Source: an uncultured Candidatus Saccharibacteria bacterium (GTDB lineage Bacteria > Patescibacteriota > UBA1384 > DATEAH01 > CAYPSR01). From it: 42,456 nt of DNA. The stretch lies in the NCBI GenBank assembly GCA_964413595.1, contig CAYPSR010000002.1:1-42456 (forward strand), read 5' to 3'. Of this stretch, positions 3,263 to 42,425 are shown piece by piece. Every line of letters starts with the position of its first letter. The stretch's first letter is position 1. A program made the translations under genes and the position numbers. The notes under the pieces are model-generated. The model did not search any database, was not told the DNA's origin, and saw only the letters and a program-made list of their open reading frames with translations.

Positions 3263-4534
3263 ATGAAGCAAAAAATTATATCTGATTTTAGTAAGGTTAT
3301 GATTGATTATTCATGGTCTTTTTCTGATAAAACTAGAAAAGATACGGCTTATATTACGCACGGTTACCATCGCTACCCTGCAAAATTTATTCCTCAAATA
3401 GTTTCTCGTTTAGCAAAAAAATACACCAAAGAAGATGATTTAATTGTTGATCCTTTTGGCGGTTGTGGCACAACTCTTGTTGAATCAAAAGTAATGGGAC
3501 GGCTATCTGTTGGCGTTGATATAAACCCTGTTGCTGTTTTGATTACTAAAGCAAAAATTACTCCAATTGATCCAGAAAAAATTGAAAAAGCATTAATGAT
3601 ACTACAAAAAAAACTAGACACATATAGCAAAGATATAAAGATACAAACGCCCAAACACGAAAGAATTGATTATTGGTTTAAGCCGGAAGAAAAAAGAAAA
3701 CTTGCTTTTATTTTTGCTGAAATTTCAAAATTAAAAAATCAAGACATTAGAGATTTTTTTTATTGTGGATTTTCTAACATTTTGAAAAATTGTTCAATTT
3801 GGCTACAAAAAAGTAATAAGCCAACAAGAGATTTGAATAAAAAACCTGCCGACCCGATACAAACTTTTTATAGGCAGATTAAAATGATGATGAGGGGAAA
3901 CGCTCGTTTTTATGAATTGTCAAAAGAAAAAAAACATTTTAAAATATCAAGCCAAGTTTATTGCACAGACGCAAGAACAATTCCAGTTAAAGATAATTCT
4001 GTTAGTTTAATTATTACCTCACCTCCCTATGTTACTTCCTACGAATATGCTGATTTGCACCAATTAACTGCTTTGTGGATGGGACATACAAAGAATTTAA
4101 GTGTTTTTCGTAAAAGATTTATTGGCACTTCCTATCACAGCAAAGAATATTTGGTTTTAAATAGTACGCTTGCTGAAAAAATAAGAAATGAACTATTGAA
4201 AAAAGACAGAAAAACTGCGGAGGAAGTTTCGGCCTATTTTAGCGAGATGAATCAAGTTTTTGTAGAAATGAAAAGAGTTTTAAAAGGGGGTGGAAAAACC
4301 TGCATAGTTATTGGAAATACAAGCTTAAAAGGAGTTAAAATATTAAATGCTGAAGTTTTTGCTGAGCAATTACAAAATTTAGGATTGAAAATTGCTGATA
4401 TTATTAAAAGAGAAATTCCGTCAAAAAATCTACCAACTGCCAGAGATAAAAAAACAGGCAGATTTGCGAAAATCAGCGATAAAAATAAGGTATCTGCTTA
4501 TCCTACAGAGTATATATTAATAATGGAGAAATAA
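3263..4534 (+). CDS. DNA amino-methyltransferase (N4-C or N6-A), alpha-like motif order
   Basis: Motif I DPFGGCGTT (aa 63) and motif IV TSPPY (aa ~253), with about 190 aa between them. Confidence 0.8.
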   Translation: MKQKIISDFSKVMIDYSWSFSDKTRKDTAYITHGYHRYPAKFIPQIVSRLAKKYTKEDDLIVDPFGGCGTTLVESKVMGRLSVGVDINPVAVLITKAKITPIDPEKIEKALMILQKKLDTYSKDIKIQTPKHERIDYWFKPEEKRKLAFIFAEISKLKNQDIRDFFYCGFSNILKNCSIWLQKSNKPTRDLNKKPADPIQTFYRQIKMMMRGNARFYELSKEKKHFKISSQVYCTDARTIPVKDNSVSLIITSPPYVTSYEYADLHQLTALWMGHTKNLSVFRKRFIGTSYHSKEYLVLNSTLAEKIRNELLKKDRKTAEEVSAYFSEMNQVFVEMKRVLKGGGKTCIVIGNTSLKGVKILNAEVFAEQLQNLGLKIADIIKREIPSKNLPTARDKKTGRFAKISDKNKVSAYPTEYILIMEK

Positions 4535-6808: not shown

Positions 6809-6961
6809 ATATTTTCTTGACCCTATGAATCTTATCTTTCGCCTTTTGGGGAAAAAATAAGAAAGTAGCCTCAATCGCCTGCTGGCTCTTGAGGAGATTC
6901 CTCGCCAGTCGTTCGGAATGACAATATTTCTTGACCCTTCTAATCTTGTCTTTTGCCTTTT
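6809..6961. repeat. Pair of ~38-bp direct repeats (period 115 bp)
   Basis: atattttcttgaccctatgaatcttatctttcgcctttt versus atatttcttgacccttctaatcttgtcttttgcctttt. Confidence 0.7.
6894..6922 (-). repeat. GTCATTCC...GGAATCTC hairpin repeat unit
   Basis: The reverse complement reads GTCATTCCGAACGACTGGCGAGGAATCTC. Confidence 0.65.
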
Positions 6962-8673: not shown

Positions 8674-9012
8674 ATGCGAGAAGTAAAAATGGCTGAAAAA
8701 CAAGCTTCAAAAAGCAAAATTCGCATTAAGTTGCGAGCCTATGACTATCGAATAGTCGATAAGTCAGCACAAAAGATTTGTGATACAGCAGAACGAACCG
8801 GAGCAATGGTTACTGGTCCGATTCCTTTACCAACCGAAAGAAAGTTGTACACAGTTTTAAGAAGCACATTCGTTAAAAAAGATGCAAGAGATCAGTTTGA
8901 AATGAAAACTCATAAAAGGCTGATCGATATTGTAAATCCAACAAATAAAACGATTGATGCTTTAATGTCGCTTGATTTACCTACCGGTGTTGATATTGAA
9001 ATAAAAATGTGA
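8674..9012 (+). CDS. rpsJ: 30S ribosomal protein S10
   Basis: [15 protein letters not shown]...[10 protein letters not shown]. An alternative ATG at 8689 is possible. Confidence 0.95.
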
Positions 9013-9104
9013 TCAGCAAATAACAAGTAAAAGATAATAGGTTGAAAACATAGTATCATTTCTGATAAATATAGAAAAGTTCGAAATATTCAATCTTATA
9101 TATA

Positions 9105-9131
9105 AAAATCCCGCTTAAAACGGGATTTTTG
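9105..9131 (+). terminator. Intrinsic terminator after rpsJ
   Basis: AAAATCCCG-cttaaaa-CGGGATTTT followed by T. Confidence 0.65.
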
Positions 9132-9193
9132 AATAAAACCTATGTTTTTTTAATGCTACATAAGTTTCGAAACATATTAGACAAAATAAGATT

Positions 9194-9406
9194 GTCATTC
9201 TGAGTGCAAGCGAAGTCCCGACATAAAGTCGGGATCCCGTATCCTCGCTATGCGAGGCATCGGGAAATCCCATTTTTACTAACAGGCAGGTTTCGCGTAT
9301 GCGAGTCAATCCTGAAACAAGTTCAGGGATCCCTTTCTACGCTCGGGATGACAAAATGTCAGCTTAGAGATCCCTCGTCATTTCATTTTTCAAGATGACG
9401 AGAGCC
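9194..9406. repeat. Cluster of at least 5 short GC-rich hairpin repeats
   Basis: Hairpins seen: GTCATTCTGAG.., TCCCGAC/GTCGGGA, CCTCGC/GCGAGG, CCTGAA/TTCAGG, ATCCC..GGGATGAC, CTCGTCAT/ATGACGAG. Confidence 0.8.
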
Positions 9407-9495
9407 TTAACTCTTAAAAGTCTAATATGTATGGGACGGATACAGGGTCTTGCAAAATAGATTTTAAAATCATATTATAGAATTAAGGAGATAAT

Positions 9496-9618
9496 ATGGC
9501 AAAAACAAAAGCAGGCAAAAAAATTGTTGAAGTACATTCTCACAAGAGAAAATGTTCAACATGTAAAACAAAAAAATCAACTAAAGTTCGCGAGTACAGA
9601 AGATCAACCCCAAATTAG
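9496..9618 (+). CDS. 40-aa highly basic protein
   Basis: MAKTKAGKKIVEVHSHKRKCSTCKTKKSTKVREYRRSTPN. Strong Shine-Dalgarno (TAAGGAGataat-ATG). Not in the ORF track because it is too short. Confidence 0.5.
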   Translation: MAKTKAGKKIVEVHSHKRKCSTCKTKKSTKVREYRRSTPN

Positions 9619-9672
9619 GCATGGTTATAAGTTTTGATAAGAAATTAAAAAACGAAATTTAAACAAATAAAA

Positions 9673-9861
9673 ATGGAAAAAAAAGAAAGAAAAATTGCAA
9701 CAGTTTTAGGGCTATCAATATTGTTCGCAGTATTGATATTTGCTGTTTATTTTGTCATGAAAGGTTTTAAGGCCTATGCTGACACTCTTATCGATTATGA
9801 AAGTTCGGTTATTTCTGAATCAAACGCTGACACTTCAACTTGTGCAACATGTAATCAATAA
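9673..9861 (+). CDS. Small single-pass membrane protein
   Basis: Hydrophobic segment ATVLGLSILFAVLIFAVYFV. Followed by a terminator. Confidence 0.5.
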   Translation: MEKKERKIATVLGLSILFAVLIFAVYFVMKGFKAYADTLIDYESSVISESNADTSTCATCNQ

Positions 9862-9884
9862 GAATTGACAAAATAAAATTTTTC

Positions 9885-9911
9885 AAAGCTTAGTACTTGC
9901 TAAGCTTTTTT
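9885..9911 (+). terminator. Intrinsic terminator
   Basis: AAAGCTTAG-tacttg-CTAAGCTTT followed by a T-run. Confidence 0.75.
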
Positions 9912-9966
9912 ATTTTATTGAAAAAATTAACAAAGGTATTATGTTAAATCATTTAATCTAACTGGT

Positions 9967-9993
9967 GGCACTTTCTCACGAAAGTGCCTAAGG
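9967..9993 (+). repeat. Hairpin + CCTAAGG element, copy 4 (loop inverted)
   Basis: GGCACTTTC-TCAC-GAAAGTGCCTAAGG. Same arms as the other copies; the loop is the reverse complement of GTGA. Confidence 0.65.
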
Positions 9994-10125
9994 CGACCTT
10001 TGATTTCTATTGAATTTAAAGCTAAAAGATGGTAAAATAATGCATATAAAAAAATTTTAAGCTAAGGTAGCTTTTAAGATACGATCGGATGTTAATTGCT
10101 ACCTTGATAAATAATTATATTTGCT

Positions 10126-10599
10126 ATGTCTGAGGAATTACCAATTAAAGAACAAAAAGTTGATATTAGGAATTTGACAAATATTTTGTATTTGAATAAT
10201 GAGCAAAGGCAATTATTGTCTGATCAACTCGTTGTCAACCAAGGTAGCGCAAGGGTTATAATGCATCTTTTTAATAATTCTTATTCAGACGAGGACTATC
10301 AAGATAAAACCATTCCTGTTTTAGAAAAATCAATTAGAATGCATACCCCAATAATTTTTGGAATTCGTGAATTTGAAGACATTGATTTGGCAGACTTTTT
10401 TAATGAGCATTTTGGATATTTGCCAGAAAATATTTATTATTATCGAACAATTTCTGATGATTCTATGCCTTATTTTCATGGATGTACAAATTCTATGCTG
10501 AATTGTGAGATAGAATATCAATATGCAATGGCATGGAGGGTTTTTGCTGATATTTTAAAAAGTTTAGGAGTAAAGAAATTGGTTTTTTCAGGTATCTAA
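10126..10599 (+). CDS. ORFan pair A, part 1
   Basis: 157 aa. A single in-frame TAA (10597-10599) separates it from part 2 in the same frame. Paralogous to 10905-11429. Confidence 0.55.
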   Translation: MSEELPIKEQKVDIRNLTNILYLNNEQRQLLSDQLVVNQGSARVIMHLFNNSYSDEDYQDKTIPVLEKSIRMHTPIIFGIREFEDIDLADFFNEHFGYLPENIYYYRTISDDSMPYFHGCTNSMLNCEIEYQYAMAWRVFADILKSLGVKKLVFSGI

Positions 10600-10644
10600 A
10601 ATGTTTTTAAAAAAGAAAACATTGAATTCTTAAGAAAAATTGCG

Positions 10645-10905
10645 TTGTCTAGTAATCCAAAATTTAGTAACATACGACAAGAAATAGCGACATCACCCAC
10701 CTATTTGGGTGTAGAATCTTTTTGGGAAGATCGAATGAGAAGAGGAGCAAAAAAATGTGAATATAATCCGACTTTTTGTGTTGGTCGTGCATATAGAATA
10801 ATGTCAAAATATTTTAATTGTTACGTATCACATTTTGCTTATCCTGATGGCAGGAAAAAACAAATGATGTTAGAAGGTACTTTGCCTAGAAAAAAGGTAA
10901 AATAA
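10645..10905 (+). CDS. ORFan pair A, part 2 (TTG start or continuation of part 1)
   Basis: Same frame as 10126-10599. No ATG and no Shine-Dalgarno. Its stop overlaps the next ATG (TAATG). Confidence 0.4.
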   Translation: MSSNPKFSNIRQEIATSPTYLGVESFWEDRMRRGAKKCEYNPTFCVGRAYRIMSKYFNCYVSHFAYPDGRKKQMMLEGTLPRKKVK

Positions 10906-11429
10906 TGTCTGAATTTGGAGCAGAACAACATGATCCAACAAATCTTGAACAAGAACCTCAAACCGGTCAGGTTTTGGAATTGTTTTGGTTGCGAAGAAAT
11001 CAAGAAAAAACCTTGATCGATGAAATACAACAATCAGGCTATATAGTCAGAGCTTGGACTCATCCATTTTATGCCGAAGGATCTAGATTATTTACTAATA
11101 AAGAAAATGAGGCATATTTAGAATATTTAAAAAGAATAGGTGCAATCTATAAAAACCCAATTAAAAATCCAACTTTTGTTTTTGAGGCTAAATCAAAAAT
11201 TGCTGAAACTAAAAAAAGATTAGCAAGAGACTATCCGAATCAGAAGTTTTATATTATTTCAACATTTGAAGAAGATGGTTGGACTAATGAATTTCATGGA
11301 CGCTCTATGCTTATTGATTCTGATGATTTAACCGAGAGTGAGAAAGCAGAAATCAGACAAAAAATGACAGACAAGCTTGATGATTTAGGGGTAGGGGTAT
11401 TATATTTCAAGGTGTATATGTGGCGTTGA
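10905..11429 (+). CDS. ORFan pair B, part 1
   Basis: 174 aa. FYIISTFEEDGWTNEFHG and LDDLGVGVLYFK align to part A1. Confidence 0.55.
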   Translation: MSEFGAEQHDPTNLEQEPQTGQVLELFWLRRNQEKTLIDEIQQSGYIVRAWTHPFYAEGSRLFTNKENEAYLEYLKRIGAIYKNPIKNPTFVFEAKSKIAETKKRLARDYPNQKFYIISTFEEDGWTNEFHGRSMLIDSDDLTESEKAEIRQKMTDKLDDLGVGVLYFKVYMWR

Positions 11430-11719
11430 TTGATAATAATGATGGCAACAGCCAGCACAGTTATGCTCTTATGCGATTTGAAACTGATTTTAAGGGAAAA
11501 TTTATGGATCCGGGTTGTGAATTGGGTATGTACGGATGTGTTTTTGAAACAATGAGACATTTTTTAGGAAACTTTGATCTTAGCCTTTCAAACGCAACAT
11601 TTCCAAATACTAGAATGGATTTTAATCATTATTTTTCAGATATGCCATACAGGGGTTATAGTATTGATGAATATGAATATAGATTGATGAATGCAAGCGC
11701 TAATTATGATAAGAAATAA
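11420..11719 (+). CDS. ORFan pair B, part 2 (GTG start, -1 frame relative to part 1)
   Basis: Overlaps part 1 by 10 nt. AAGGTG lies 5 nt upstream of the GTG. YGCVFETMRHFLGNF aligns to FCVGRAYRIMSKYF of A2. Confidence 0.45.
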   Translation: MALIDNNDGNSQHSYALMRFETDFKGKFMDPGCELGMYGCVFETMRHFLGNFDLSLSNATFPNTRMDFNHYFSDMPYRGYSIDEYEYRLMNASANYDKK

Positions 11720-11752
11720 TTATGCCCAAAATACCAAAATTCGTAATTTATC

Positions 11753-11781
11753 TTGACAAACAAGTTAAAATAGAATAAAAT
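11753..11781 (+). promoter_or_regulatory. Candidate promoter for rplC and the downstream operon
   Basis: tcTTGACA-N17-TAAAAT. Confidence 0.5.
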
Positions 11782-11944
11782 TAGAGCATAAATGAATATA
11801 TTTATGTCTGGAAAATGCTTTGCAAGGCAGAGTAATTCTAGGCAATTGTTTTTTTATAATACAAATTAGTACAAACAATACAAATATATATTTTGAAAAA
11901 ACATAAATCATTTGTAAATTTGTATAAAATATTTGTACATTATT

Positions 11945-12568
11945 ATGGCTAAAATGTTAATAGGCAAAAAATTAGGAATGACATCGGTATTTATTGATGA
12001 AAAAGCAGTCCCGGCAACAGTGATAAGCCTTGGGCCATGTTTTGTTTCACAAATTAAAACTGAAAAAAAAGATGGTTATAATGCAATTCAGCTTGCATAT
12101 GGTAAGTCAAAATCTGTTAATAAACCTCAGAAACAGCACCTTAAAAAAGCAAAGTTAGCCGAAGACCTAAAGTCTCAATACGAATTTAGAACTGGTGATA
12201 CATCAAAATTTGAGCCAGGAATGGAAATTAAATGTGATATTTTTGAAACTGGCTTAAGTGTTGATGCAACATCAATTTCAAAAGGAAAAGGTTTTCAGGG
12301 AACAGTTAAAAGGCATAATTTTAACACTGGGCCAAAAACTCATGGGTCAAAGAATTATCGTAAACCAGGTTCGATTGGTGCGACTGGTCCACAAAGAGTT
12401 TTAAGGGGCAAAAAAATGGCTGGACATATGGGAAATCAAAAAGCAACAATTAAAAATCTTAAAATTTTAGAAATAGATATTGAAAAAAATGTCATGATAT
12501 TAAAAGGTGCAATACCTGGAATAAATGGAAGCACTATGGTAATTAAAGATTCAATACCAAAAAATTAA
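11945..12568 (+). CDS. rplC: 50S ribosomal protein L3
   Basis: MAKMLIGKKLGMT..., FQGTVKRHNF. ATG at 11945 is preferred over the track's TTG at 11933. Confidence 0.95.
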   Translation: MAKMLIGKKLGMTSVFIDEKAVPATVISLGPCFVSQIKTEKKDGYNAIQLAYGKSKSVNKPQKQHLKKAKLAEDLKSQYEFRTGDTSKFEPGMEIKCDIFETGLSVDATSISKGKGFQGTVKRHNFNTGPKTHGSKNYRKPGSIGATGPQRVLRGKKMAGHMGNQKATIKNLKILEIDIEKNVMILKGAIPGINGSTMVIKDSIPKN

Positions 12569-21998: not shown

Positions 21999-23306
21999 AT
22001 GAATTTTACAGGATCGGTTAAAAAATTTTTCTCATATCCTGATCTAAGAAGAAAAGCTATTGTTCTCATTCTTTTAATTATTTTTATTCGCATACTCGGA
22101 CATATTCCACTTCCTGGTGTTAATTTGGAAATTCTAAAAGAGTTTTTTAATAAAAACCAGATTTTTGGATTGTTAAATATGTTCTCTGGCGGAACCATGG
22201 AGAATTTTTCTATTATTTTAATGGGTGTTGGCCCATATATCACTTCTTCAATTATTATCCAGCTTTTAGGAATGATTATTCCGTCTTTGGAAAATCTTCA
22301 AAAAGAAGGGGAATACGGTCAGAAAAAACTAAATTCATACACTCGGCTTTTAACAATTCCGCTCGCAATTATCCAGGGTTATGCAATGATTACGCTTTTA
22401 TCAAAAGGTGGAGCAGGATCTGCAATTACCATTGGTTCGCTGTCAGGGATAAATTTAATCACAGCGCTTATTGTTATTTGTGCAGGATCAATGTTTTTAA
22501 TGTGGCTTGGAGAAATTATTTCAGAAATCGGGTTTGGAAATGGTGTGTCATTAATTATTACAATCGGAATTTTAGCTGGCTTTCCAGAAATGATCAGAAA
22601 TACTGGCGCTATTCTTTTTACTGGTGGCATAGTTGATTGGAACAAGATGATTGGCGTTTTGATTTTTGTTTTAATTTTTATAGCTGTAATCGTTTTTATT
22701 GTGGCAGTAACTGAGGCTGCTCGCAATATACCTGTCTCTTATGCGCGACAAGTCAGGGGAATGAATAATTTTGGTAGGGTTGATACAAACATTCCATTTC
22801 GCGTAAATCAAGGTGGAGTTATTCCAATTATTTTTGCCCTTGCGATTATGATTTTTCCAACTACCTTAGCCAACTTATTTCAGAGCTCGAATATAGTGCT
22901 TTTATCTAAAGCATCGCATTGGGTTTTGGCAAACCTGTCTCAGGGGAGCCTACTTTACGGAATTATTTATTTCTTGCTTGTTTTTGCTTTTAATTATTTC
23001 TATACAGCAATTGTGTTTAATCCTAAAAATGTAGCTGAAAACTTGCAAAAACGTGGCGGATTTATTCCAGGAATTAGACCTGGAATTGATACAGAAAAAT
23101 ATCTTGGATCAGTATTGGTAAGAATTAACCTTTTTGGAGGATTATTTTTGGCGATTATTGCAATTTTGCCTTATATTGTTCAATCAATAGTTAAAATTAA
23201 CACGCTTTATTTGGGAGGTACTGGAATTTTGATCATTGTTGCTGTTATACTAGAGACAATGAGACAAATCAAATCTCAATATTTAATGCGTTCATATGAA
23301 TACTAA
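21999..23306 (+). CDS. secY: Preprotein translocase subunit SecY
   Basis: 10-TM pattern, GIMPYI-like GVGPYITSSIIIQLL; synteny. Confidence 0.96.
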   Translation: MNFTGSVKKFFSYPDLRRKAIVLILLIIFIRILGHIPLPGVNLEILKEFFNKNQIFGLLNMFSGGTMENFSIILMGVGPYITSSIIIQLLGMIIPSLENLQKEGEYGQKKLNSYTRLLTIPLAIIQGYAMITLLSKGGAGSAITIGSLSGINLITALIVICAGSMFLMWLGEIISEIGFGNGVSLIITIGILAGFPEMIRNTGAILFTGGIVDWNKMIGVLIFVLIFIAVIVFIVAVTEAARNIPVSYARQVRGMNNFGRVDTNIPFRVNQGGVIPIIFALAIMIFPTTLANLFQSSNIVLLSKASHWVLANLSQGSLLYGIIYFLLVFAFNYFYTAIVFNPKNVAENLQKRGGFIPGIRPGIDTEKYLGSVLVRINLFGGLFLAIIAILPYIVQSIVKINTLYLGGTGILIIVAVILETMRQIKSQYLMRSYEY

Positions 23307-24060: not shown

Positions 24061-24087
24061 ATTAGCTGAAAAAGGTTGGATATACTT

Positions 24088-24134
24088 GTCATTCCTGACT
24101 TGATCAGGAATCCCCGCCTGCCGGCGAGGCAGGC
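24088..24134 (+). repeat. Two hairpin repeat units
   Basis: GTCATTCCTGA-cttga-TCAGGAATCC, then GCCTGCC-ggcga-GGCAGGC. Translated spuriously at the start of track ORF 24076. Confidence 0.75.
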
Positions 24135-37592: not shown

Positions 37593-37622
37593 ATCCCGAT
37601 TCCTTCGGAATCGAGGATCCCA
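37593..37622. repeat. Hairpin repeat unit
   Basis: atcccGATTCC-ttc-GGAATCgaggatccc. Confidence 0.6.
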
Positions 37623-39506: not shown

Positions 39507-41645
39507 ATGAATATAACTTTATCAAGTCTAAAAAAACTTGTAGATATTAAAATGCCAATTAATAAACTCGCGGAAGAATTAACCCGAGTTGGTTTAGAAG
39601 TTGAAAAGATTTTGGATTATAAAGGAGAACGAGTATTAAAGCTTGATATTTCTCCAAATCGTTATGATTGTCTGTCAGCACTGGGAATTTCCAGAGAAAT
39701 TACCATGCTTGAAAAAAACAAGATTAAATTAGAAGAAGTTAAAATTCAGGAATCAGATATTGAAAAAAAGCTACAAGTTGAAATCGAAGATAAAGAAATT
39801 GTTCCAAAATATTATTATTATATAATCGATAATATCAAAATTTCAGAGTCACCAAAATGGATGCAAAAAGAACTAGAAGCATATGGCTTTCGTGTGCTTA
39901 ATAACATTATTGATATTACTAATTATGTGATGATTATGCTTGGCCAGCCACTTCACGCTTTTGATTATGATAAAGTTGTTTCCAATAACCCAGAAAAGAA
40001 AATTATTGTCCGACGTGGTAAAAAAGGCGAAACAGTTGCAACATTAGACGGTAAAATATGGGATGTTGATGAAAAAACAATTGTTATTTCAAAACCAAAC
40101 GGAGAGTTGATCGATTTGGCAGGAATTATGGGTGGATTAAAATCTGAGATAGATGCAAATACGAAAACTATTGTTTTGCAAGCCGCACTTATGGATTCAA
40201 AATTAATTCGCACAACTAAAAAAAGACTTAATCATGATACGGAAGCAGCTTATAGATACGAGCGAGGCGTTGACCATTCAATGGTAAAATATTCTTTAAA
40301 ATATGCAGCTAAATTAATTCAAGACTTGGCAAACGGGAAAGTTGTTAAATTAAATAAAATTAATAATATAAAATATCCTACAAAGGTAATTAAAACATCA
40401 TCAATACAATTATCAGATTTTGTTGGACACAGGTTTACATCAGAAGAAATTAAAAAGATGTTAGAATTACTTGGATTTGATGTTGAAACTGATTCTGAAA
40501 ACATAACCATAACTATTCCGACGTGGCGCGAGCTCGATATTAATTGGTGGCAAGATATTGCCGAAGAGATAATCCGGGTTTATGATATTTCAAAAATCAA
40601 ACTCATTCCGATTCAGCATGATTCTGCGTTAATTCAGCGTAATTCTGCAATTCTGTCAAATTGGGAGAAAAAAGAGGTAATAAAAGATGAGTTATTTAAG
40701 CTTGGACTAACAGAAGTTTACAATTATTCATTTATTGGTGATGATGATTTGGAAAAATGTAAAAGTTCAACAGGCGAAGTTGATAAAAAAGACCTATTTG
40801 AGCTGGCTTATCCTTTGTCGCCAGAATTAAAATATTTAAGACAAAACCTGGCAATTGGTTTTTTAAAAACTATTGCTAAAAATCCTCAGGCAGACAAAAT
40901 TGAGATTTTTGAAATTGAAAACGTTTTTCAAAAACTAAACTGTCATCCTGAACTAGATTCAGGATCTCATATAAAGCAAATTTCTGAGATTCCGGATCAA
41001 GCCTGGAATGACAATAATTCCAACAGTGAATCAACGAGAATTGGGATTGCTTGCGCTGGAGAGAAATCACAAAATGCAAGTGATTTGATGACAAAATTAA
41101 TAAAAGTTTTTGGAATTAATTGTCATTCCGACGAGCATAACGAGGAAAAATCCCAGAATCAAAATGAGATTTCTCACTTTGTTCGAAATGACATGTTAAA
41201 AGTTTTTAATATAAATCCTGAACTTTTAAAACAATATAAAATTAGAAAGCCTAATGTTTCAATTTGTGAAATAGATTTTGGTGATTTTTTGAAATATGCG
41301 AAGTTTGATGGCAAGTCATTAAATTGGCACCCATCATCAAAATCTCAATATCGTGACCTATCACAATTTCCAACCGTCGAACGCGACCTAGCAATTATAT
41401 TAGACAGAAATATTGAAAATGAGAAAACCAGGCAAATAATTATGAGTACTTCTGACCAAATAATAAGTTCTGACCTATTTGATGAATTTGCAAATGATAA
41501 GTTTGGTGAAAACAAAAAATCTGTTGCTTATCATATTTCTATGCAATCACCTGATCACACCTTGACATCTTCTGAGGCTGAGAATATAATTAAGAAAATT
41601 TTAGAAAATATTAAAAATGAACTTGGGGGAGAGTTAAGGAGATAA
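39507..41645 (+). CDS. pheT: Phenylalanine-tRNA ligase beta subunit (no OB tRNA-binding domain; carries repeat insertions)
   Basis: DISPNRYDCLSALGISREI, B3/4 region LHAFDYDK, C-terminal FDX-ACB-like LSQFPTVERDLAII...SVAYHISMQ. Confidence 0.92.
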   Translation: MNITLSSLKKLVDIKMPINKLAEELTRVGLEVEKILDYKGERVLKLDISPNRYDCLSALGISREITMLEKNKIKLEEVKIQESDIEKKLQVEIEDKEIVPKYYYYIIDNIKISESPKWMQKELEAYGFRVLNNIIDITNYVMIMLGQPLHAFDYDKVVSNNPEKKIIVRRGKKGETVATLDGKIWDVDEKTIVISKPNGELIDLAGIMGGLKSEIDANTKTIVLQAALMDSKLIRTTKKRLNHDTEAAYRYERGVDHSMVKYSLKYAAKLIQDLANGKVVKLNKINNIKYPTKVIKTSSIQLSDFVGHRFTSEEIKKMLELLGFDVETDSENITITIPTWRELDINWWQDIAEEIIRVYDISKIKLIPIQHDSALIQRNSAILSNWEKKEVIKDELFKLGLTEVYNYSFIGDDDLEKCKSSTGEVDKKDLFELAYPLSPELKYLRQNLAIGFLKTIAKNPQADKIEIFEIENVFQKLNCHPELDSGSHIKQISEIPDQAWNDNNSNSESTRIGIACAGEKSQNASDLMTKLIKVFGINCHSDEHNEEKSQNQNEISHFVRNDMLKVFNINPELLKQYKIRKPNVSICEIDFGDFLKYAKFDGKSLNWHPSSKSQYRDLSQFPTVERDLAIILDRNIENEKTRQIIMSTSDQIISSDLFDEFANDKFGENKKSVAYHISMQSPDHTLTSSEAENIIKKILENIKNELGGELRR
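40942..41012. repeat. Two GTCATYC-type hairpin units in-frame within pheT
   Basis: GTCATCCTGAActagaTTCAGGATCTC (40942-40968) and the inverted unit GAGATTCCGGATCAAGCCTGGAATGAC (40986-41012). Confidence 0.75.
41122..41192. repeat. Two more hairpin units in-frame within pheT
   Basis: GTCATTCCGACGAGCATAACGAGGAAAAATCCC (41122-41153) and GAGATTTCTCACTTTGTTCGAAATGAC (41166-41192). Confidence 0.7.
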
Positions 41646-41648
41646 CAA

Positions 41649-42425
41649 ATGGACGAAAGGTGTGTTGAAAAAAAAGATGCTGGTGATGTAGAAATCAGAA
41701 GACAAAGACAAAAAGAAATCGATTTAGTTTTGCCACGCGAGTTTACTCATGACCCGGTTTATATGTGCGAAAGATTAATGATAATCGCTGAATTGTATCA
41801 ATTTGTATTTATGCAAATGCCACAGATAAGCGATCAAAGTAATCCCGAATTTCTAGAAAAATCTCAGAAAAATATTGTTGATTATAATGCACTTTATACT
41901 GCGTTTACGTCTTTCAGGGGTGTGCCTCAAGCAACATCGCATGCTCAATATAATACTCACTCACAAATAGCGTGTACCAAAATTGATCCCAGTTTAAAAT
42001 TTGAAACAACTCTTGATGCCTGTCAATATGCAACTGAAATGGTTTGTCACTTACGAGAAGATACAAGCATCAATAAACAACTAGAACTAGCACAAGCCAT
42101 TGTGGTTTATGACCCTAAAATGAATTATCTTTTAGAATTTGCTGGTAGATATAGTATAAATTATCTAAATATTTTACAAAGACGCCTGCGGGGATTACAG
42201 GATATTCAAAATAAAACTCATATGCCTATTATACAGCCTGACGGTTTTAATGAAACAGAAGCCTTGCAACGTGATTTAAATGATGCAATTATGCAAATGC
42301 CATATAATTTACAAACATGCCAAATGATTAAGGCAGGTTTTGAGCCGAGATTAATAGCTTATAATGCTTGTTCGGGAACAATATTTGTTGGCGATGCGTG
42401 GAAATATCATAAAAGTGAAGAATAA
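41649..42425 (+). CDS. ORFan hypothetical protein (258 aa)
   Basis: Starts 3 nt after pheT. Rich in Q/C/M/H/Y. No motif recognised. Bracketed by a duplicated pheT 3' segment. Confidence 0.6.
   Translation: MDERCVEKKDAGDVEIRRQRQKEIDLVLPREFTHDPVYMCERLMIIAELYQFVFMQMPQISDQSNPEFLEKSQKNIVDYNALYTAFTSFRGVPQATSHAQYNTHSQIACTKIDPSLKFETTLDACQYATEMVCHLREDTSINKQLELAQAIVVYDPKMNYLLEFAGRYSINYLNILQRRLRGLQDIQNKTHMPIIQPDGFNETEALQRDLNDAIMQMPYNLQTCQMIKAGFEPRLIAYNACSGTIFVGDAWKYHKSEE

Follow-up and report, generated by a model that had tools for sequence, protein, structure and literature searches.

The window analysed here, the whole stretch of 42,456 nucleotides (nt) of contig CAYPSR010000002.1 from an uncultured Candidatus Saccharibacteria bacterium, contains pheT (39507-41645, plus strand), the gene for the beta chain of phenylalanyl-tRNA synthetase (PheRS), with a product of 712 residues. 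Pfam identifies the B1, B3_4, B5, tRNA_synthFbeta, and FDX-ACB domains in this product, and the CLM (B6/B7) module is also present. The genes are arranged in the order rbfA, an open reading frame (ORF) of 121 residues, pheS, and pheT, which is found in relatives as well. Within its coding sequence, this essential gene of an uncultured lake bacterium carries two blocks, each of which is an in-frame dimer of short units of the repetitive extragenic palindromic (REP) type. Four such units in two in-frame blocks had been described in an earlier note drawn up from the sequence letters, and both the coordinates and the translations that it quoted proved correct, with no stop codon in either block.

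The units share one layout, consisting of a TGTCAT tag at the 5' end, a stem opening A-T and then T-A, and an ATCYC tail at the 3' end. All units open AT and close AT (AT...AT), and paired units are inverted. Block 1 (40941-41013) is a dimer with its tags outward, whose in-frame translation covers residues C479-D502 and reaches the first base of the N503 codon. It begins with the forward unit 1 (40941-40968, plus strand; TGTCATCCTGAACTAGATTCAGGATCTC), which is 28 nt long with a perfect 8-bp stem, and ends with the reverse unit 2 (40986-41013, minus strand), likewise 28 nt long and reading TGTCATTCCAGGCTTGATCCGGAATCTC on the minus strand. The spacer between them (40969-40985) measures 17 nt, a length typical of the dimers in other phyla (mode 14-28 nt). 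A native segment of pheT follows (41014-41120, plus strand; NNSNSESTRIGIACAGEKS...LIKVFGIN), which can be aligned with homologues and in which IACAGEK is conserved with the closest of these, P0002. Block 2 (41121-41193), again with its tags outward, covers residues C539-D562 in translation, together with the initial A of the M563 codon, and is made up of the degenerate forward unit 3 (41121-41154, plus strand; 34 nt, TGTCATTCCGACGAGCATAACGAGGAAAAATCCC), a spacer of 11 nt, and the reverse unit 4 (41166-41193, minus strand; 28 nt, TGTCATTTCGAACAAAGTGAGAAATCTC on the minus strand). Unit 1 has a stem of 8 bp and a loop of 5 nt, as does the intergenic unit at 24087 described below; units 2 to 4 have five to seven pairs with mismatches.

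Counted from TGTCAT to ATGACA, both blocks are exactly 73 nt long. With a mutual identity of only 47%, they represent two different family members, not a duplication. Both are read in a common frame in which the forward units give CH(P/S) and the reverse units EI(P/S)....ND, without stops. The translation through the blocks includes CHPELDSG... and ...EISHFVRND, as well as the stretches CHPELDSGSHIK and EISHFVRNDM. Of the three frames through a dimer, the TGA within ATGACA closes one and leaves the other two open.

Both segments appear as gaps in all 17 aligned PheT homologues, with no conserved residues running across them, and since every aligned homologue lacks them they are inserts, as the earlier note had proposed. 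The closest homologue, P0002, is 56% identical in the alignment of 17 and 52% identical by BLASTP, and the codon alignment is also gapped at both blocks. The PheT homologues come from Patescibacteria and have about 625-645 residues; the best 120, several of them labelled Berkelbacteria, measure 618-676 residues unless they carry an extra tRNA_bind domain, against 712 residues in the query. The AlphaFold model of PheT has a mean predicted local distance difference test (pLDDT) score of 83 and matches solved bacterial PheRS beta chains with E-values of 1e-53 to 1e-45. Values of pLDDT below 50 are found at residues 478-505 (block 1) and 541-560 (block 2), and elsewhere only at two other loops, so that both inserts are predicted to be disordered loops. 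The alignment to the Thermus enzyme (2IY5_B) stops at FEvGRVF(579), directly ahead of insert 1.

Independent assemblies of four lake-water metagenome runs (X1-X4) yielded contigs that span the whole of block 2 and both junctions of block 1. Contigs in these runs end at block 1 (40941-41019), and unrelated contigs, with depths of up to 208x, match the repeat alone, which indicates a repeat family that is abundant in the lakes sampled and breaks up their assemblies. Block 2 looks older than block 1, as block 1 has many near-copies in the same metagenomes, some of them at much higher depth, whereas block 2 has almost none and contains one decayed unit. The pheT locus was not found in any of the RNA runs, and no Rfam family was detected in the window at gathering thresholds.

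The units were counted in the window with a strict pattern, GTCATYYC-N6-20-GRRATCTC, and a relaxed one. The strict pattern gave four matches against none in the 100 shuffles, and the relaxed pattern gave 11 against 3.1 +/- 1.8. A covariance model built solely from 72 units of other phyla found six matches in the window at E < 0.01, three of them within pheT, with E-values down to 3e-8. Units 2 and 4 match the strict pattern and score E = 2.7e-8 and E = 2.4e-7, respectively, and unit 1 scores E = 0.0025; unit 3 is found by the relaxed pattern only and scores 5.9 bits, with only its ends matching. The interior of the helix co-varies, as the observed score was reached by none of 500 shuffles. Among the ten credible units of the window, nine have the tag TGTC and one has CGTC, and all four pheT units have TGTCAT. 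No match to the model was found in 34 kb of the closest relative's loci.

Outside pheT, the earlier note had placed the same unit at several intergenic positions, and those at 6894, 24088, and 34602-34646 are indeed such units. One lies upstream of tuf, a gene assigned by Pfam (6894-6923, minus strand; 6892-6924 in the model; E = 9e-10), one has a perfect 8-bp stem (24087-24114, plus strand; 24086-24116 in the model; E = 1.4e-6; folding z = -3.9), and one adjoins the gap gene and matches the strict pattern (34619-34647, minus strand; 34617-34648 in the model; E = 0.004). The cluster that had been put at 9194-9406 holds, at 9193-9400, three relaxed-pattern units (9193-9219, plus strand; 9326-9353 and 9368-9400, minus strand) as well as other hairpins, and under the model it is weak throughout (E 1.4-9.3). 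The hairpin that had been listed at 37593, ATCCCGATTCCTTCGGAATCGAGGATCCC (37593-37621), has the ATCCC ends and lacks the GTCAT tag.

Two further PheT proteins were considered as carriers of unit-derived inserts. In P0030, no unit was found either by the model or by eye. In P0033, the model likewise found no unit, and inspection by eye gave only a compact inverted pair, CGTCATCGCG...CGCAATGACA. P0033 (Patescibacteria; locus L124, 3212-5242) has an insert of about 30 residues (residues ~331-362) between B5 and CLM, which holds this pair. The pair may derive from the collapse of a dimer like those in pheT.

One genome per species was scanned for GTCATTCC-N9-15-GGAATCTC. The matches listed include Dehalococcoidia, Bacteroidia, Acidobacteriota, Verrucomicrobia, several Proteobacteria, Nitrospirales, Spirochaetes, Patescibacteria, and others. 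The number of matches alone proves nothing, as about 2,000 chance matches are expected in the scanned collection by our own arithmetic. In nearly all matches listed, the interior is palindromic or has a GA mismatch. Where two units lie close together in other phyla, their tags point outward in 39 of 56 pairs and inward in eight, with spacers mostly of 14-28 nt. The units are not specific to one lineage, and they fit the superfamily of CGTC/TGTC-tagged REPs.

Of the 207 relaxed-pattern units sampled from other phyla, about seven lie in frame inside credible genes, among them a MutS2-like gene (EIPGQAGNDA), a methylmalonyl-CoA mutase-like gene (GDSRLRGNDN), and an RsgA-like GTPase gene (CHSELVEESL), with names assigned by eye. 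Insertion in frame is thus uncommon per unit and yet an established outcome, since this proportion agrees with the 2% of intragenic copies of the NTS repeat in Neisseria meningitidis (PMC11893778). Long stop-free stretches around units in the high-GC loci L032, L091, and L114 were discarded as low-complexity artefacts and not genes. In a bin labelled Nanoarchaeota (L029, 1510-1583), an in-frame dimer, MDSCFRRNDAIQDANNSVIPAQAGIQ, lies within a 584-residue ORF that is DNA methyltransferase-like in appearance; this reflects either spread across domains or a mis-binned contig. In a contig of Cryomorphaceae (L082, 3883-4549), four units with similar flanks (..ccgcgcGTCATTCCGAAC..tttgtag) follow one another in a single orientation at intervals of about 160 nt, apparently as parts of a longer, tandemly arrayed repeat.

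The units are associated with genes for small nucleases of the GIY-YIG family. This association was noticed in the genome loci before matching papers were found. Three of the 120 genome loci contain a GIY-YIG ORF of about 95-130 residues that is bracketed by a forward unit immediately 5' of its start and a reverse unit immediately 3' of its stop. Chenal et al. described the corresponding arrangement in 2025 (PMC11893778), in which NTS, a longer form (CGTCATTCCCGCG..GCGGGAATC), and the HGTCWY-tagged Ssn-related motifs (SRM) flank ssnA genes; SsnA is a GIY-YIG nuclease of 94 residues that cuts single-stranded DNA beside the motif.

We fetched 80 metagenomic loci encoding relatives of these GIY-YIG proteins and counted the 70 genes that had full flanks, referred to here as Ssn-like. 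The SRM of Chenal et al. flank genes for single-domain GIY-YIG nucleases of cd10448; here the GIY-YIG domain was recognised by Pfam. A forward unit was present within 200 nt upstream of 46 genes and a reverse unit within 260 nt downstream of 48. Both flanking units were found at 36 genes (51%) and neither at 12, and the tags point outward as they do in the pheT blocks. The background was 0.038 per flank, and the association is specific to orientation (60 and 65 against 16 and 21, so that the opposite orientations are 3-4 times rarer). Two units flanking Ssn-like genes are identical at 25 of 27 bases to units 1 and 2 of pheT, the match to unit 1 coming from locus L200. The named relatives include proteins from Woesebacteria, Kuenenbacteria, and a "Patescibacteria group" genome, and the association includes one locus from a Patescibacteria genome.

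The Kuenenbacteria locus (L207) consists of a unit, the Ssn-like gene, and three reverse units; downstream of the gene, at 3990-4160, a 49-nt segment with one reverse unit occurs in at least three tandem copies. Several Ssn-like ORFs (L126, 3001-3315; L128, 930-1244; L200, 602-907) run into the downstream reverse unit. As these ORFs end at the TGA within the ATGACA tag, the end of the element supplies the stop codon of the gene.

We read the pheT blocks as tagged-REP dimers that are gene-less miniatures of the unit-ssn-unit module, that landed independently, and that have been kept in tolerant loops, a reading to which we give a probability of roughly 0.8. They look like miniatures of the module because they have the same ends and the same polarity and contain no gene. 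There would have been two independent insertions of different family members, each into its own loop of the B6/B7 (CLM) module, which is catalytically inactive. The repeats probably spread through single-stranded hairpin DNA, with an Ssn-type nuclease encoded elsewhere recognising and cutting it in trans. Selection would remove insertions into pheT that break the frame, add a stop codon, or hit a structured region, and the two blocks would persist because they keep the frame, bring no stop codon, and occupy sites that tolerate extra disordered residues. The data directly show what the repeats are, that the blocks are inserts read in frame, that disorder is predicted there, and that units of this type accompany Ssn-like genes; that Ssn moves the repeats and that the inserts are neutral passengers is what we infer.

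Several observations weigh against this reading. To our knowledge, transposition by an Ssn nuclease has never been demonstrated. No Ssn-like gene is present within the 42-kb window, and no target-site duplication is visible at either block, with the empty site known only from an orthologue that is about 52-56% identical. The same distance to the closest orthologue makes the insertion borders approximate, and no contig in the four lake-water runs represents a pheT allele without the insert. The units had been called hairpins in the earlier note, which is apt for unit 1, the only one of the four pheT units whose DNA folding energy supports a strong hairpin (8 bp, -6.4 kcal/mol, z = -2.7), and less so for units 2, 3, and 4, which fold weakly under standard DNA parameters. 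The ends of the covariance model match by construction, as the pattern that collected its units was derived from the window's own units; independent evidence comes only from the unit interior and the association with Ssn genes. The search string for SRM, HGTCWYN(0-2)YYVSBRHN(0-5)WNVSBRGN(0-2)RNCYNB, has no match in the window. This string is narrower than the repeat superfamily, as the commonest variant in the scan (with the interior GAGCGAAGCGAGG) also fails to fit it when checked by hand, and since the window units do not match it we file them under the broader superfamily of tagged REPs and call them SRM-like. Chenal et al. pointed out that NTS-ssnA-NTS resembles an insertion sequence and raised this architecture as a hypothesis only (PMC11893778).

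Other accounts of the blocks have to be weighed against the one that derives them from Ssn modules. The dimers may have been spread by a different enzyme, such as an IS200/IS605-type or RAYT tyrosine transposase or an IS110-type recombinase, or by recombination or repair between repeats. The Ssn genes would then do no more than lie among the repeats or employ them as targets. This would suit the conclusion of Di Nocera et al. that CGTC REPs have no dedicated transposase (PMC3733652); in addition, Ssn has been shown to cut single-stranded DNA only and not to join it, and both the lack of an ssn gene in the window and the Ssn-like genes without any flanking unit speak for it. It does not, however, explain the approximately 20-fold and polarity-specific enrichment of units around Ssn-like genes or the shared polarity of the dimers and the gene-bearing module, and the GTAG tag of RAYT-linked REPs is absent. 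We regard it as possible but rather unlikely. A different proposal is that the inserts have been put to use, either as Ssn cutting sites in pheT that limit recombination or transformation or as functional surface loops of PheRS. A precedent for the former is found in N. meningitidis, where NTS and SsnA modulate transformation (PMC11893778), and it is suggestive that one essential gene has received two insertions and that, of the six confident units in the 42 kb, three fall within it. Against such a role, the inserts are absent from every aligned homologue and are predicted to be disordered, the two blocks have diverged to the identity given above while unit 3 is decaying, and the intragenic copies in other phyla occupy unrelated proteins, all of which makes a function of the inserts improbable in our view.

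The blocks might also be no repeats at all, but loops of PheT specific to this lineage that resemble repeats by chance, or the product of an assembly chimera at a repeat. Assemblies do break at block 1, many unrelated contigs match it, and units 3 and 4 fold weakly. Such an origin is nevertheless very hard to reconcile with E-values as low as 3e-8, with the same 73-nt architecture in both blocks and the preserved frame, and with the independent contigs from four runs that cross block 2 and the two junctions of block 1, and we give it hardly any weight. Just as little credence can be given to the idea that the blocks never reach the protein, being removed like an intron or bypassed in translation: terminal stems can form in the blocks, and nothing more direct points to it, whereas the blocks have no stops and keep the frame, the window has no Rfam family, and the same type of unit is read through in unrelated proteins elsewhere.

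Some other features of the window were recorded. Downstream of pheT lies an ORF of 258 residues (41649-42425) without a Pfam match, in the position that is occupied by aspS in the relatives L001 and L125. The genes rpsJ (8674-9012) and rplC (11933-12568), which are usually adjacent, are about 2.9 kb apart, and the gap (9013-11932) contains, besides the hairpin cluster at 9193-9406, three ORFs without a Pfam match (10126-10599, 10905-11429, and 11420-11719). This gap possibly reflects an insertion in the S10 operon. The ORF of 435 residues at 21999-23306 includes an untagged palindrome, ATTCCAGGAATTAGACCTGGAAT (23064-23086), which is similar to the dRS3-like core (model E = 0.24) and may be due to chance.

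The inserts in pheT extend the Rickettsia-style pattern of selfish palindromes translated in essential genes to the Patescibacteria, a group that is very large, has small genomes, and for the most part has not been cultured. Such inserts lengthen proteins, break metagenome assemblies, and can pass for lineage-specific domains. A wider idea, which we consider doubtful at this stage, is that Ssn-bracketed repeats are active mobile DNA in Patescibacteria and that gene-less dimers are a recurrent source of extra surface loops, even in essential enzymes of translation. If that were true, the frames CH(S/P)... and ...EI(S/P)xxxxND would be a proteome-wide signature of insertion. If the complete genome has an ssn gene, the pheT locus would offer natural substrates for addressing mobilisation by Ssn.

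Palindromic elements translated in frame within protein-coding genes were reportedly described in Rickettsia by Ogata et al. in 2000 and 2002. Like the pheT blocks, these are in-frame palindromes in conserved genes that are absent from orthologues and occupy sites compatible with the fold. The two differ in that the Rickettsia elements occur in a different phylum and that RPE-1, one of these Rickettsia palindromic elements, is longer (about 150 bp). The sequence link rests on the statement of Di Nocera, De Gregorio & Rocco (2013) that R. conorii RPE-4 and RPE-6, together with Neisseria dRS3/NTS, are members of the CGTC REPs (PMC3733652). The parallel with Rickettsia that the earlier note had drawn is in this respect closer than it claimed, as RPE-4 and RPE-6 fall in the same CGTC/TGTC superfamily.

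CGTC REPs, whose tag is often TGTC, have stems of 8-9 bp that start with A-T pairs, loops of 4-5 nt, and an unpaired 3' tail that is CCA in "most" cases and is not obligatory; inverted dimers are common (PMC3733652). The units of the window resemble them in the unpaired (C/T)GTC tag, the A-T start of the stem, the short 3' tail, and the inverted dimers, with spacers of 20-100 nt in the described families and of 17 and 11 nt in pheT. More than half of the intragenic copies reported by Di Nocera et al. are dimers or groups that add 20-30 residues in frame; certain genes carry two insertions, and the targets include tRNA synthetase genes, all of which is paralleled in pheT. Unlike the window units, the described families come from Proteobacteria, Chlorobi, Bacteroidetes, Spirochaetes, and Thermotogae and not from Patescibacteria; the tail in the window is CTC or CCC instead of the consensus CCA, and several window stems are shorter or mismatched. 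With NTS and SRM (PMC11893778), the units share the HGTCWY tag, the hairpin, and ATCY, as well as the repeat-gene-repeat arrangement with outward tags around Ssn-like genes, including the one in a Patescibacteria genome. They differ in that the window has no ssn gene and that in-frame coding copies are not discussed in that paper.

Searches of the literature found nothing that links Patescibacteria to REP, REPIN, or dRS3, and searches with raw sequence or peptide strings returned primer noise only. Systems of REPINs and RAYTs, which Bertels & Rainey are said to have described in 2011, are similar in that what moves is a doublet of hairpin repeats in inverted orientation and that a single small gene flanked by the repeats encodes the proposed mobilising enzyme. 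They are set apart by a GTAG tag, where the window has TGTC, and by an enzyme that is a Y1 transposase of the IS200/IS605-like type and not a GIY-YIG nuclease. Bacterial miniature inverted-repeat transposable elements, such as QMITE1 of Coxiella (reviewed in PMC10969869), are likewise short and non-autonomous, have terminal inverted repeats, and can be fused in frame with host genes. The pheT blocks share this design, with the ends TGTCATYYC...GRRATGACA, and unit-ssn-unit modules have the same ends and polarity; no target-site duplication is visible at pheT, where the insertion borders are approximate, and the related gene-bearing element differs in encoding a nuclease and not a classical transposase. 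Intragenic REP dimers in frame, two per gene and with tRNA synthetases as targets, have thus been described since 2013 (PMC3733652). What is new here is the lineage, Patescibacteria, and the link between coding insertions and Ssn nuclease modules.

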